Source: Octopus vulgaris (taxonomy: Eukaryota). Taken from it: a stretch of 64,000 nt of DNA. The position numbers and the translations under genes are program-made. The notes under the pieces were generated by a model. It was not told the DNA's origin, searched no databases, and was given only the letters and a program-made list of their open reading frames with translations. The stretch spans positions 59,024,001-59,088,000 of the forward strand of contig OX597831.1 of the NCBI GenBank assembly GCA_951406725.2. The letters run 5' to 3'. Every line of letters begins with the position of its first letter. The first letter of the stretch is position 1. Shown here in pieces: positions 4,752-43,586 of the stretch.

Positions 4752-5131
4752 ATATGAATAAAAAATGGAGTTAACGCAGGTGTAATCAAATATTTTTACT
4801 TTCGATACATGTTTCGAATATTCTACTGATACTATATATATATATATATATATAGGGTAAGCAACAACCTGCTTAGACATACCGAAAATTTTGAATAGTA
4901 TCAGTGGAATTTTCGAAACATGTGTCGAAAGTAAAAATATTTGATTACGCCTGCGTTAACTCCATTTTTTATTCATATTATTCAAAATATTCAACGTAAA
5001 CACGAAGTTTCTACCTTTATAAACAAGGAGTTACAACAACTTTACTTGTGAGATTTTTGCTGCCCTGGTAACTATTTATTTATTTTTTCCGTGTTAATAT
5101 TGTTAACAAGGTAAAAATACACTCATCCACA
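4752..5131. mobile_element. Fold-back pLTR-like module in (TA)n, arms 4752-4834 / 4896-4978
   Basis: About 83-bp near-perfect inverted repeat; the spacer holds (TA)n plus a 45-bp piece (gggtaagcaacaacctgcttagacataccgaaa) matching the start of the 5729 module. Confidence 0.75.
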
Positions 5132-5196
5132 ATATATATATATATATATATATATATATATATATATATATATATATATATATATATATATATATA

Positions 5197-5707
5197 ACAA
5201 TTGAGGATAAAATCTTTAAAAGAAATTATCAGTAGTCAGCGTGAAAAACCTCGTAAGAGAAAAAATCCGTAAATTCTTCCTCTTTGAAAATATTCATTTA
5301 TATTATATTGAGGGTACTACTATACGTAGATACCACACGCTAAGAGGGACCAATGCGGTCAAAACTACTAAAAATAAACAAAATTTTACCGAATGCAAAA
5401 CTTCAAAACACATCATTTTAAAAAGGAATTCAGTTACATATCACATGTGATTTCGCATTTAATGCAGAATATGCATTTCATGTTCGTCAGTGCAACAAAC
5501 TCAAGAAATATAAGAAAAAACATAACATTACAAACTCGATAGCCAACCGTAGAATTCGTCGTAGCATGTACGAATGTTTATCCTTACATATCTATGAAAA
5601 TGGCGGGCTTTTTCGGGTAAAATTTTGTTTATTTTTAGTAGGTTTGACCGCATTGGTCCCTCTTATCGTGTGATATCTACGTATAGTAGTACCCTCAATA
5701 TAATATA
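5197..5707. mobile_element. Fold-back pLTR-like module with hammerhead, arms 5300-5390 / 5616-5707
   Basis: Inverted repeat, (TA)n on both sides, homologous to 9928-10748. Confidence 0.8.
5433..5496 (-). ncRNA. Type-I hammerhead ribozyme
   Basis: Reverse complement: gttgca-CTGACGA-acatgaaatgca(tattc)tgcattaaatgc-GAAA-tcacatgtga-TA-tgtaac; palindromic stem III; A/C mismatch at base of stem II. Confidence 0.8.
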
Positions 5708-5890
5708 TATATATACATATATATATATAGGGTAAGCAACAACTTGCTTAGCCACATACCGAAACTTTAGAAATAGCAGTAAAACATCGCTTATTTCCAT
5801 TTTCTACAAATAAAACTCCACATATAATACATACAAGTAACTCACATATGTAAAAAGAAGGAAAAATATCGAAAAGTAATACTTCGGTCA

Positions 5891-5949
5891 GTTACGAACG
5901 CGTTTCTGGGCTAGAATTATAAATAACTCATTCCCGTCCTCAGAGCAAC
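5891..5949 (-). ncRNA. Type-I hammerhead ribozyme (slightly decayed)
   Basis: Reverse complement: gttgct-CTGAGGA-cggg...ccca-GAAA-cgcg-TT-cgtaac. Confidence 0.7.
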
Positions 5950-6119
5950 ATTCCATTAGATTATAGAATTGCAAATGATAATTTTTGGAGGAAAAATACG
6001 AATTCATTCGTCTATATGGATTTGGCTTGTGTTGACGATCTTTTGCTATCTCCAGTGGCGCGAGATCGGGTTGTAAGAGGTAGGTAAATAACATTTGCAA
6101 ATCTACAATCTAATGGAAT

Positions 6120-6178
6120 GTTGTGCTGATGATGGGAAGGAGTTATTTATAAATCTAACCCAGAAACGCGTCCGTAAC
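6120..6178 (+). ncRNA. Type-I hammerhead ribozyme
   Basis: gttgtg-CTGATGA-tggg...ccca-GAAA-cgcg-TC-cgtaac; canonical core, GUC site, palindromic stem III. Confidence 0.85.
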
Positions 6179-6368
6179 TGACCGTGACTTTGTTTTCGTC
6201 ATGTTCCCTCCTTTTTACATATGTGAGTTACATGTATGTTATATGTGAAGTTATATTTGTGGTAAATGGAAATCAGCGGTATTTGATAGCTATTTCTAAA
6301 TTTTCGGTATGTGGCTAAGCAACCTGTTTATTTATACATATACCTAAAGAACTTTTTGTAAAGGTTCC

Positions 6369-6410
6369 TACCGATAATGGTTTTATTTCCCTACCGAAAA
6401 CTACTCGGTA
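6369..6410 (+). ncRNA. Degenerate hammerhead remnant
   Basis: tacc-gataa-tggt...accg-aaaa-ctac-TC-ggta; stems I and II retained, core decayed. Confidence 0.4.
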
Positions 6411-6547
6411 ATAATTGTTGATTTTAAAATTAATAATCATTTACCCTTATATTTTCACACACACACACACATACGCCCCCCCATATATATATATATATAT
6501 ATATATATATATATATATATATATATATATATATATATATACATACA

Positions 6548-40313: not shown

Positions 40314-40465
40314 AATACCGGATTCATTCTTGTTGCTTATCTTGATTATAATCACCCCACAAATTTTTATGGATAACACCATACACAATTCTGGTGATAA
40401 AACTCAATATTAATTCAATGTTGGGGGATTAATCGATGAGGGCATTCTACTTCAGATAATGCAAA

Positions 40466-41210
40466 GATAAGCTAATGATTATATCAGACAGTAACCTCGT
40501 GGTATCAGTTTGTTCATCATGAAATAATACTTAAAGGATATAAATAAAATTACCAGCAGGGTATATAATAAACTTCATTAATTATAGCCTACTTTAGTTA
40601 ATACTTATATTTATAAAATATCAAGATTATGTCAAATACAGAATGTGAGATATAAGATAAACCATCAGTATAAAAATGTCTGCGTGTAAATGTAATATAT
40701 AACAAGAATTCCGTATTTGACATATACTTGATTTTGCATGATTGATATATATATATATATACTAATTTATATTTAAAATGTACAATTTATAATTTCTAAT
40801 TCTTAATATTACAAAGTATAATTTTTATTCTTAATTTTTAATTCCCAATTTTTTATCTTTAATGCTTAATTGTATTGCTTATTTTTAAAGGGATGTAAAA
40901 TTAAATATATAATATTTTGAAATAGAACCTGATGTTGTGTTGGAATAATTGTAAATCTGACGATTGCATATATGTAGTTATATATGTATACATATAGGTG
41001 TATATGTATATATATTGTAATCTTCTAATACTGAAACACATGTAGCTCCTTCATATTTTATAAATATAAGTATTAACTAAAGAAGGATATAATTAATTAA
41101 GTATATTATATACCCTGCTGGTAATTTTCGTTATATCCTTTAAGTATTATTTTGTGATGTGCAAACTGATACCATCAGTTTATTGTAAGATATACTCATT
41201 AGGTTATTTT
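40466..41210. mobile_element. Older fold-back module, arms about 40466-40586 / 41088-41210, containing a decayed hammerhead
   Basis: ggtatcagtttg...aattaccagcagggtatataata versus tattatataccctgctggtaatt...caaactgatacc; inner short inverted repeat about 40620-40645 / 40708-40732. Confidence 0.75.
40925..41048 (+). ncRNA. Degenerate hammerhead with expanded loop II
   Basis: gaac-CTGATGT-tgtgttggaa...ttctaatact-GAAA-cacatg-TA-gctc. Confidence 0.5.
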
Positions 41211-41219
41211 TGTATTATA

Positions 41220-41575
41220 AATAATAATAATAATAATTGTGTACAGTGCTCAGGTGCACTACAACTCATCTAAAGTGTATAGATAATCAGGTGTAGTTTC
41301 GGCGGATTTCGGAAAGCACGAGGGCCTTAAAAATGCAGTGTCATGGCAGTCAACAACTGACGCAGGCAATTTATTCCATGCTTCAGCAACTCTGAGCGTG
41401 AAAAAATGTTTCCGAAAGTCATGGGAGCTGTATTGTTTTCTGACTTTGTAGGCATGTCCACGTGTGTTAGACACATGGAGATCAAAAAGGTGTTCAGTGT
41501 TGTTGTTGGTGAGGTGGATGATAACTTTGTGGGTGTTTACCAAGTCCGTCGCCAAACGCCGGAGCTTCAGTCTGA
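41220..41575 (-). mobile_element. CR1-type LINE 3' end
   Basis: NTRGHAYKVRKQYSSHDFRKHFFTLRVAEAWNKLP; tail gtgcacctgagcactgtacacaa(tta)n; a 3' remnant also lies at 61866-61900 (+). Confidence 0.92.
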
Positions 41576-41759
41576 AATATAATACTCGCATATCGATTAA
41601 TCCACAAAAAATGAATTGAATAAATGCACACACACACATAAATACATACATACATACATACATGCATACATACATACATATATATATATATATATATATA
41701 TATATATAGATAGATATGTATATATACTTGTGTGTGTGTGTGTTTGTGTGTATGTATAT

Positions 41760-41960
41760 TTTCTTTTATTTGTTTCAGTTATTTGACTGCAGTCATGCTG
41801 GAGCACCGCCTTTCGTCCAAAAAATCGACTCCATGAATTATTCTTTGTAAGTCTAGTACTTATTCTATCTGGCTCTTTTGCCGACCTGCTAAGTTACGGG
41901 GTCGTAAACACACCAACATCGGTTGTGAAGCGATTGTGGGGGAGACAAACACAGACACAC
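41760..41960 (-). mobile_element. SINE family A 3' half
   Basis: Similar to 19785-19980. Confidence 0.85.
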
Positions 41961-41991
41961 AGATACATATATATATATATTATGTGTGTAT

Positions 41992-42365
41992 CTCTCTCTA
42001 TATAAACGGCAGTTTGTCTGTCTGTGTGTCTGTGTGTCTGTCAGGTTGTACCCTCACCCTGACCACGGCTTTCAACCGATTCTGATGAAACTTGACACAC
42101 ACATAGCCCAATGTCATGATTCAAAACTAACGCAGCGAAAATTTTGAAAAGTTCCCTCAGTTCTGAAAAACATCGATAAATTTGACATGGGGTCGAGAAT
42201 CAGAAACACAAACCACAGACTGTCTAGGGGACGCAACTCGACCTTTTTTTACTAAAAAAAAATTTACCATCGTTTTTTTCCATTTTTTTGCTATTTTTTC
42301 TTTGCTAAAAATACTTTATAGTTATTTCCCTTACAAACCCGAGCAACGCCGGGTGATACTGCTAG
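41992..42365 (+). mobile_element. Complete non-autonomous Helitron
   Basis: 5' TC (tctctctatataaa), (tgtc)n, 3' hairpin acccgagcaacgccgggt followed by CTAG then T; no TSD. Confidence 0.85.
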
Positions 42366-43342
42366 TATATATATACATGTGTCTGTGTATGCGTGTGTGA
42401 GTGTGTGAGCTTGTGTGTATGTATCTCACTTGATCAATTTCACATAATCACTAATAGAAACTCACAATATATTTGTGTTTGAACCTATGTGAGAACCTAT
42501 GTGATAGATGTATGTGGATGTATGCTATCAAAGAGGTAAAAATCATAGGTGCTGATAAAATATTTAGAAGCGTCTAGAAATGTTATTCATCTGAAAAATG
42601 TACATAGCTTTTGGATGTAATCATTATAACAGGAAAAAAAACGTTTGTTATAATGTATATAATTAGAAAATAGATTGTATTAAGGCAAGATTTAATCATT
42701 TTTTTCGCAATGTCTATGTTTTAACTGTACAAATTTTTCGAACATTGTTTCAACAAAACAATAATTTTCTCTGTTAAGAAATCATAAAATCTTTTTTTAC
42801 AATTTCCAAAAGTCTGAATGGATATCATTTAGTAACTATATCTTATATTGCTTTTAAAAGCAGTTCTTTCTGTTTTTTGGGGGTTTTTTCAGAAATATCT
42901 TGGATAGAAGTGCGATAATATTCTTTTCCAAAATATATGATGGTGTTCAGTTATCCTTCAAATCTTCAGATTCCTGCTAAAAACATCTGAAAAAACATTC
43001 ATTTAATTTTTCATTTTCGAATGTCGCCTCTGATTTCAGCAATCCGCCAATAAGATTTACTATTTCGAGTATGAATTAGTGAGAGTGAGCCTACCGATTC
43101 GCATAAGCTAAAAGAAACTGCAAACGCATTTTCCTCAAAAACATCTTGAATGGGTGCGGGGAGCATAATAGGCGTAGGTGTGGCTGTGCTGTAAGAAGCT
43201 TGCTTCCCATCCTCATAGATTCGTGCCCCGTCCTCCCTTGGACAAATGACTTCTACTATAATCTCGTGTTTGAATCTGGAACAACCCCATGGTGCTATAT
43301 ATATATATATATATATATATATATATATATATATATATATAT

Positions 43343-43586
43343 ATAAGGATAAGATCGTTAATTTAAAATAAAATAACGATTTTATCAAGTGGTCAGCATG
43401 GAAAAAATAACCTTCAAAGGTAATATCTATTTGAATTACAAATTAGGTTACCTACGAGATACCACCATGCTGAAAATAGCAGCCATGATCTGGCTCTAAA
43501 ACCAATTAAGGTGGTTTTAGAGCCTGATCATGGCTGCTATTTTCAGCATAGTGGTAATCTCGTAGATACCCTAATTTATAATTTTA
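43343..43586. mobile_element. Fold-back module: 71-bp-arm hairpin 43434-43504 / 43512-43582 plus a 90-bp unpaired terminus
   Basis: Near-perfect stem with 7-nt loop; (TA)n on both sides. Confidence 0.85.

Follow-up and report, generated by a model that had tools for sequence, protein, structure and literature searches.

A window of 64,000 nucleotides from Octopus vulgaris (contig OX597831.1, 59024001–59088000; G000:C18) contained nine short fold-back modules, designated here by the positions 4752, 5197, 5729, 9928, 21901, 23187, 27261, 40466 and 43343. The modules are probably 5'-truncated, head-to-head insertions into (TA)n, three of them of Penelope-like elements (PLEs) and six of units without an open reading frame (ORF), likely formed by dual priming by a Penelope enzyme followed by joining of the arms through microhomology. 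A sequence-only reading of the window had proposed that they represent a non-autonomous Penelope-driven system. They are better explained by the usual geometry of PLE insertion, which several autonomous families and five retrozyme-like passengers have in common, than by one new system: six modules, belonging to five families, indeed lack ORFs, but the other three are truncated ends of ORF-bearing PLEs.

Copies of the families were drawn genome-wide from the 2.8-Gb assembly of 227 contigs. For two of the element proteins, the homologues that carry a species name belong to Octopus. For each family the best approximately 40 copies were scored out of 441–2,466 first-look candidates (A 2,466; B 1,933; B2 1,819; C 2,204; D 2,060; E 2,009; F 1,647; G 441), which are not copy numbers. 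The counts omit the window's own locus in each set, loci L128–L146 and L148–L152 (retrieved with a fold-back query), L356–L359 (repeats of L355), and the duplicate-strand loci of family F. Family B was tallied apart because its self-complementary terminal probes gave false pairs and ends. Contact with (TA)n was scored at (TA)4 or longer, and the orientation of the modules was set from the genome-wide copies of each family.

Ends, centres and targets of the fold-backs

All nine modules were fold-backs with outward tails, and they came from several families as had been proposed. Self-BLAST of the masked window recovered the inverted arms of eight (4769–4961, 5317–5689, 5738–6328, 10051–10730, 21914–22170, 23214–23528, 40464–41210 and 43446–43571). 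Module 27261, in which the arms overlap by only about 20 bp, was recognised by family mapping as a minus arm and a plus arm of one family. The family orientation placed the arms head-to-head with 3' ends outward in all nine cases.

The arms had been described as two copies of the same terminus, which did not hold. Every family has two fixed 3' ends, 35–150 nt apart, and one arm of a module stops at the first of these (end1) while the other carries an extra tail of 35–150 nt to the second (end2). Because this tail lies on one arm, most modules extend beyond the repeat that can be seen. The rule of one arm for each end was kept by seven of the nine modules, by the window's own ORF-bearing element (family W) and by two further fold-backs overlooked in the sequence-only reading (18289–18673 and 25044–25234). 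The exceptions were 23187, broken by a fragment resembling a long interspersed nuclear element (LINE), and the decayed 40466.

A second arm facing outward was detected at 64 of the 179 genome-wide loci. The outermost pair consisted of one end1 and one end2 in 49 of the 50 fold-back loci of families other than B, and in 12 of the 14 B loci, while overall usage of the two ends was about equal (129 and 143). In B2, all 16 inverted partners at other loci halted near end1, opposite an arm reaching end2.

The earlier statement that nearly all modules abut (TA)n fitted 13 of the 18 module ends, but 40466 had (TA)n at neither end and 5729, 21901 and 23187 at one end each. The suggested enrichment was clearly present in the genome-wide copies, where 167 of 201 terminal 3' ends of seven families touched (TA)4 or longer, compared with 729 of 9,133 random window positions (8%). 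For family B, the probes of which gave false ends, the corresponding figure was 33 of 71.

The fold-back centres varied from copy to copy. Among 42 resolved junctions, 24 showed an overlap of 0–44 nt, 19 of these of 1–5 nt, and most of the others a short gap. This agrees with the earlier view that the fold-backs arise anew at each insertion from two 5'-truncated complementary DNA (cDNA) arms, and the variable arms and asymmetric ends agree with the reported absence of transposase-type terminal inverted repeats (TIRs). At 17 of the 42 loci the end1 arm was the longer one, yet it lacked the tail carried by the shorter arm, so that neither arm simply duplicates the other. Equal arms were present at four of the 42. 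Arm-to-arm identity averaged 94%, and the arms were identical in two of 34 insertions.

Coding and ORF-less families

Modules 4752, 40466 and 21901 are cut-short 3' ends of ORF-bearing PLEs, and the Penelope-like origin suggested earlier was thus borne out for families E, G and F. When family E was traced upstream it led into an ORF, and the arm of 4752 followed this ORF in 27 of 30 ORF-anchored loci. One E locus (L207) consists of (TA)n, an inverted pseudo-long terminal repeat (pLTR), a pLTR, the ORF, a pLTR, the tail and a microsatellite, the unit being about 2.8 kb long. Another (L212) has an open frame of 778 amino acids (aa) with DKT, RWL and GIY-YIG, and with neither GxKF nor CCHH. The endonuclease of E has the terminal CxxC and CxH and lacks CCHH. 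The region of the CxCX5C linker is an Asn-rich stretch in E, where the motif is not recognisable, and a Cys cluster of different spacing in G. In L188 family G lies collinear with the end of a Hydra-type endonuclease, and in L196 it precedes the ORF start (2 of 20 loci); the ORF of L188 is decayed, with the CxH end kept, CCHH absent and CxxC lost, and L201 contains an inverted piece of reverse transcriptase (RT). (TA)n was present at 18 of 20 E ends and 7 of 16 G ends. By their sequence motifs, of which the DKT/RW set was read in E, families E and G are assigned to the Hydra clade.

At 19 of 25 loci family F came after an endonuclease of the CCHH type; the protein has a CX2-5CxxC linker and, at its C-terminus, a CCHH GIY-YIG domain. 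Its motifs point to a Neptune-type PLE, with Nematis as a possible alternative. The tail beyond end1 is about 150 nt in E and 35–44 nt in F and W.

The family E fold-back of the window (4756–5127) has a left minus arm stopping at end1 and a right plus arm reaching end2, both being Hydra-clade PLE 3' ends, and a short family B 3' end with its own (TA)n lies in its centre (4832–4895, minus). The family F fold-back (21905–22215; left end1, right end2) consists of two Neptune-type PLE 3' ends without a hammerhead. The family G fold-back (about 40405–41218) is composed of decayed Hydra-clade PLE 3' ends, and its hammerhead core, near 40930, is mutated. Its left arm directly adjoins a further PLE 3' region (40230–40396, plus), which also has a mutated hammerhead. 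Family F is also present as a single-arm copy against (TA)n (51712–52032, minus). The two additional fold-backs have (TA)n on both sides: 18289–18673 (left end2, right end1) consists of Hydra-clade PLE ends with a hammerhead core at 18541, and 25044–25234 (left end1, right end2) of the ends of another Hydra-clade family, a single-arm copy of which lies against (TA)n at 24856–24913 (minus).

The RT and GIY-YIG ORF of family W (263–2539, plus) contains GxKF, DKG, a CX4CxxC linker and CCHH (RVT_1 1.7e-07). It is open and RT-bearing, as had been noted, and has 83 matches at 96–100% aa identity. From these motifs W appears to be a young Neptune-type PLE, although Nematis is possible. The element does not stop at the TG tract: its 3' untranslated region (UTR; 2540–4712, plus) includes the TG/TA tract and stops at end1 against (TA)n at 4713–4755. 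Just upstream of the window, from G000:C18:59021075, there is an inverted arm that runs to end2, and the whole element is a 7.6-kb tail-outward fold-back in (TA)n. In BLAST and nhmmer comparisons W matched none of the module families even with its true 3' end, in agreement with the earlier statement. The 1.5-kb TG/TA tract (2700–4050) is part of the 3' UTR and is present in W copies (L092–L106); family W thus spreads microsatellite sequence, including (TA) runs that could serve as its own targets. Coding-like sequence was seen also 5' of the W ORF (L091 6449–8200; L093 1736–2900), with about 300 codons followed by frameshifted frames; it is either an independent ORF or a long extension of the N-terminus.

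The remaining six modules belong to five ORF-less families with units of 478–603 bp (A 492, B about 600, B2 580, C 478 and D about 495 bp). All five run from the distal end directly into their own next unit, head-to-tail: read-through past end2 was found in 28 of 42 segments of A, 6 of 28 of C, 4 of 77 of D and 1 of 29 of B2, and was seen also in B. The tandems are mostly partial, and family A reaches more than two units without coding sequence (L060). The longest stop-free frames in A–D were 60–156 codons, and no PLE protein match was found inside the units. The tails of A, C and D can be aligned with one another (D–C nhmmer E 2.6e-05), and B and B2 have common sequence. All ten termini of the five families read CC, then T and an AT-rich run, a double end which is absent from most ORF-linked families here; because of this common ending the five may have one common partner. 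The families are retrozyme-like repeats that likely borrow a Penelope enzyme.

Family A forms the fold-backs 5197–5697 (left minus arm to end2, with a hammerhead at 5490; right plus arm to end1) and 9928–10745 (left end2, right end1), the latter with hammerheads at 10220 (minus) and 10561 (plus, weaker stem II) and with a right arm that continues past end2 into the next A unit. The family B fold-back (5730–6448; left end1, right end2) has hammerheads at 5943 (minus) and 6126 (plus). In the B2 fold-back (22818–23557) the right arm ends at end2, while the left arm, with a hammerhead core at 22944 (minus), continues past end2 into the next B2 unit and halts at the LINE-like fragment. This decayed fragment (22400–22817, minus) presumably derives from a restriction-like endonuclease LINE. 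The family C fold-back (27262–27613) has a left arm at end1, with a hammerhead at 27454 (minus), and a right arm at end2, and in the family D fold-back (43347–43585; left end2, right end1) the arms are cut off before the non-canonical hammerhead-like motif of D.

Some further observations concern these families. In B (L014, L019, L021, L023 and L024), D and B2, end1 often reads like one telomere C-strand unit before the TA run, possibly by chance; PLE RTs are akin to telomerase. In one Hydra-type family an inverted B2-like end is fixed in the 3' UTR, 350–550 bp 3' of the ORF, in all four copies seen (L304–L307), as a passenger captured and copied in cis; as a link to a partner this piece was rejected because it lies on the opposite strand. 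Locus L144, where D lies near a Hydra ORF, was rejected as well, (TA)n and another fold-back being located between the two. A very young Hydra-type family (L427–L456) with a minimal hammerhead and numerous open ORFs of 727 aa is a candidate for the source acting in trans, its sequence showing no match to A–D. Elsewhere in the window, decayed fragments at 9047–9358, 10820–11360, 30109–30501 and 55991–57006 presumably represent mariner-type transposases, an RTE-type LINE 3' end and a hAT-like transposase, and an array of a minisatellite with a repeat of about 71–74 bp at 61261–61800 is unrelated to the fold-backs.

Hammerhead motifs

Hammerheads were accepted by a structural filter that combined the core with stem I, stem II and a palindromic stem III. 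Six sites in the window passed, and three were found overall in 20 shuffled windows, 18 of which had none. Five of the six lie in four of the nine modules (5490 minus, 5943 minus, 6126 plus, 10220 minus and 27454 minus), fewer than the five or six modules originally said to contain hammerheads: the core motif of 23187 (22944 minus) failed the filter, 4752 has kept only the 3' half, the core of 40466 is mutated, and 21901 and 43343 contain no hammerhead. The sixth site stands alone at 25929–26005 (plus), ending near the (TA)n at 26183.

Each ORF-less unit has one hammerhead-type motif. The filter was passed in 18 of 29 loci of A, 17 of 29 of B and 17 of 19 of C; the motif of B2 has the core with a paired stem I, and that of D is non-canonical and fails. 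Stem I differs in sequence between the families with its pairing kept, and in A and C the core columns were more highly conserved than the mean (0.987 vs 0.933 and 0.996 vs 0.977, respectively). Minimal PLE hammerheads with a palindromic stem III act as dimers. Among the coding families the filter was passed in 10 of 30 loci of E and 7 of 19 of G. Family F had no hammerhead in its 3' UTR (none of 25 loci passed), and the W unit had no canonical hammerhead, with one of 15 W loci passing.

The arms had been thought to be copied from ribozyme-processed RNA. Only 2 of 42 segments of A, 1 of 28 of C, 2 of 77 of D and 3 of 29 of B2 had their 5' end at the predicted cut, a slight excess being present in B2 alone, and 18 of the 42 family A segments exceeded one unit in length. 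Since also F and W fold back without a hammerhead, this claim is unsupported, and ribozyme processing appears to be unnecessary for fold-back insertion.

Insertion model and rival explanations

In the proposed model a Penelope RT-endonuclease would nick both strands of (TA)n, and two cDNAs would be primed, one for each fixed end. The two primings may belong to a single event, probably on one RNA: they seem coupled because independent choice of ends, or independent RNAs, would yield mixed pairs only about half the time. The truncated cDNAs would then join centrally by microhomology. The A segments longer than one unit point to an uncleaved multimer or circle as the putative template of the ORF-less units, on which a PLE protein, most likely of the Hydra clade, would act in trans. 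The hammerhead may make unit-length or circular RNA without setting the insertion ends.

Several observations weigh against this model. The loci sampled were the top BLAST hits and thus non-random. Longer ORF-linked copies, proposed as a check, were found for E, F and G, but no collinear PLE ORF was found upstream of A, B, B2, C or D in 150 loci. An autonomous partner for these five was searched for by BLAST and nhmmer against the W, F, E and G loci and further Hydra- and Neptune-type families (queries P0122, P0123, P0124 and Pfam GIY-YIG); the 3' flanks of the retrieved Hydra- and Neptune-type loci contained no match to them, Naiad elements being unsampled, and the matches inspected at the searched loci were neighbouring or nested insertions and not collinear 3' ends. 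Rfam gave no hammerhead match in the whole window, where the listing was dominated by microsatellite-like microRNA models, or in 5200–6450. In monomer folding only the C motif was better than shuffled sequences (z −3.0; the other six −1.9 to +0.3), and the conservation of the D motif did not exceed that of its flanks (0.933 vs 0.954). The arms of one insertion were not closer to each other than to the rest of the family (identity above the median in 19 of 34, p=0.6), and this comparison thus gives no support for one common RNA template. Short-read contigs of four public runs covered the family sequence of 5197–6480, but among the pieces listed none spans the centre or shows an empty site; the (TA)n may therefore partly have grown after insertion. 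Finally, later deletion of palindrome centres or endonuclease trimming could imitate unequal arms.

The published account of head-to-head PLE repeats is self-priming (PMC3846280), the model of Arkhipova et al. 2013. Here a strand would fold back on itself, and the palindromic intermediate would be trimmed by the endonuclease at end1 on one side and at end2 on the other. The tail is ascribed to endonuclease resolution in the available text of PMC8557442, the short junction microhomology fits as well, and one arm could have served as template for its partner at 25 of the 42 resolved loci. The 17 loci with the tail only on the shorter arm nevertheless demand an extra trimming step, equal arms are as rare as stated above, and in vitro the two ends are RT start sites for the Poseidon element (PMC11167929). 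Self-priming is thus unlikely, though well worth keeping in mind. The ORF-less families might also be pLTRs of autonomous PLEs whose ORF-bearing copies escaped sampling, since three other seemingly non-coding modules turned out to be PLE 3' ends and only the best approximately 40 of 441–2,466 candidates were scored. Past end2, however, A, B, B2, C and D enter their own next unit, whereas E, G and W enter the start of the ORF, and the A array of more than two units holds no coding sequence (L060), which makes an unsampled parent quite improbable.

Two further explanations appear extremely improbable. Miniature inverted-repeat transposable elements (MITEs) or fold-back DNA transposons with long TIRs and a TA target would likewise be short, non-coding, palindromic, TA-flanked and abundant, and their TA duplication could hide in (TA)n; yet arm length and centre vary in every copy, and a second arm was detected at 64 of the 179 loci only. 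The ends also lack symmetry, the copies show 5' truncation or a tandem arrangement, and in three families the sequence runs on into an RT ORF. This origin is already refuted for E, F, G and W. Palindromes next to microsatellites are known trouble spots, and no short-read contig piece listed from the four runs spans a centre, as would be expected of long-read fold-back chimeras or assembly artefacts at (TA)n. The arms are mostly non-identical, which argues against read chimeras, and they halt at two kinds of fixed family ends and recur on many chromosomes with different centres.

A more far-reaching form of dual priming is tentative and, taken as a whole, rather doubtful. An enzyme dimer would grip the tail of one RNA and start end1 and end2 from separate nicks, forcing one of each; five ORF-less ribozyme circles would hijack it through their double end; and the fold-backs would be a main source of the unusually plentiful near-perfect double-stranded RNA (dsRNA) and of the hyper-editing in the octopus.

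Relation to known elements

The general architecture has largely been published: inverted pLTRs, one-sided tails, (TA)n targeting and an octopus Hydra element (PMC3846280, PMC8557442, PMC11167929). PMC8557442 (Craig et al. 2021) describes inverted 5'-truncated flanking copies, a tail at one end and target duplications unreadable in microsatellites. Hydra and Naiad elements target (TA)n, Naiads also in octopus (File S1 rows), and File S1 includes Hydra-1_Obim from Octopus bimaculoides. The Hydra-clade traits given there are DKT in place of DKG, an RWK motif, no conserved GxKF/Y, GIY-YIG without CCHH but with CxxC and CxH flanking the conserved E and N, a CxCX5C linker and a tail of 30–40 bp. 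Families E and G resemble this clade in their single ORF, unit of less than 3 kb, DKT, RW, C-terminal GIY-YIG without CCHH, and CxxC with CxH, as well as in the hammerhead in the pLTR, the (TA)n target, the inverted truncated 5' copy and the one-sided tail. They differ in that the tail of E is about 150 nt long and its CxCX5C linker is not recognisable, and the hammerheads found here have long stem II loops. Families W and F share GxKF, a DKG-like motif, the CX2-5CxxC linker and the CCHH endonuclease with Neptune-type PLEs, and also the microsatellite target, a tail of 35–44 nt and head-to-head pairs. No canonical hammerhead was found in them, although PMC8557442 holds it general in PLEs with a C-terminal endonuclease, and W differs further by the 1.5-kb TG/TA repeat within its 3' UTR.

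PLEs have been proposed to mobilise animal retrozymes (PMC7229834, Cervera and de la Pena 2020; bioRxiv 10.64898/2026.07.22.740005, Li et al.), in the available text from co-occurrence and pLTR similarity only. Like non-long-terminal-repeat retrozymes, A, B, B2, C and D are ORF-less and AT-rich, with one hammerhead-type motif per unit (putatively type I, but non-canonical in D), head-to-tail arrangement and PLEs alongside. Those retrozymes are 150–450 bp long and form long arrays, whereas the present units are 478–603 bp and mostly dispersed and partial. The available text of these two accounts shows neither the paired fixed ends and inverted arms of the five families nor their targeting of (TA)n.

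The Penelope of Adineta vaga (PMC3846280) and anole Poseidon (PMC11167929) resemble the families here in their head-to-head inverted pLTRs with the tail on one side, and in trans-mobilisation via the pLTR, which is likely here. Purified Poseidon protein nicks and extends both strands of AT-rich DNA in vitro; its RT has two internal start sites delimiting the tail, a dimer is predicted, and ribozyme cleavage is not required (PMC11167929). For these elements inversion is ascribed to self-priming or left open, while here both the arm geometry and the finding of mixed ends at 49 of 50 loci speak for two primings that are coupled. The origin of tandem and inverted PLE insertions is stated as open in PMC8557442 and PMC11167929. 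In the literature covered, with most subscription papers and Repbase outside that coverage, no cephalopod retrozymes, no count of PLE end asymmetry and no PLE twin priming were found; the supplements of bioRxiv 10.64898/2026.07.22.740005 may list species. New here are the retrozyme-like units with full PLE insertion scars and the counted end asymmetry favouring twin priming.

The octopus genome thus offers a countable handle on PLE insertion in the near-strict rule of one end of each kind. The ORF-less units with ribozyme motifs, carrying insertion scars like those of young PLEs with intact ORFs, provide a handle on PLE-driven movement of retrozymes. Octopus is an outlier for near-perfect local dsRNA (4.4e-3 of loci) and shows the strongest hyper-editing, with no repeat source named in the available text (PMC5625713). 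The fold-backs, about one per 6 kb in the window, are a candidate source of this near-perfect dsRNA and of adenosine-to-inosine hyper-editing and, if this is true, may be a main one.

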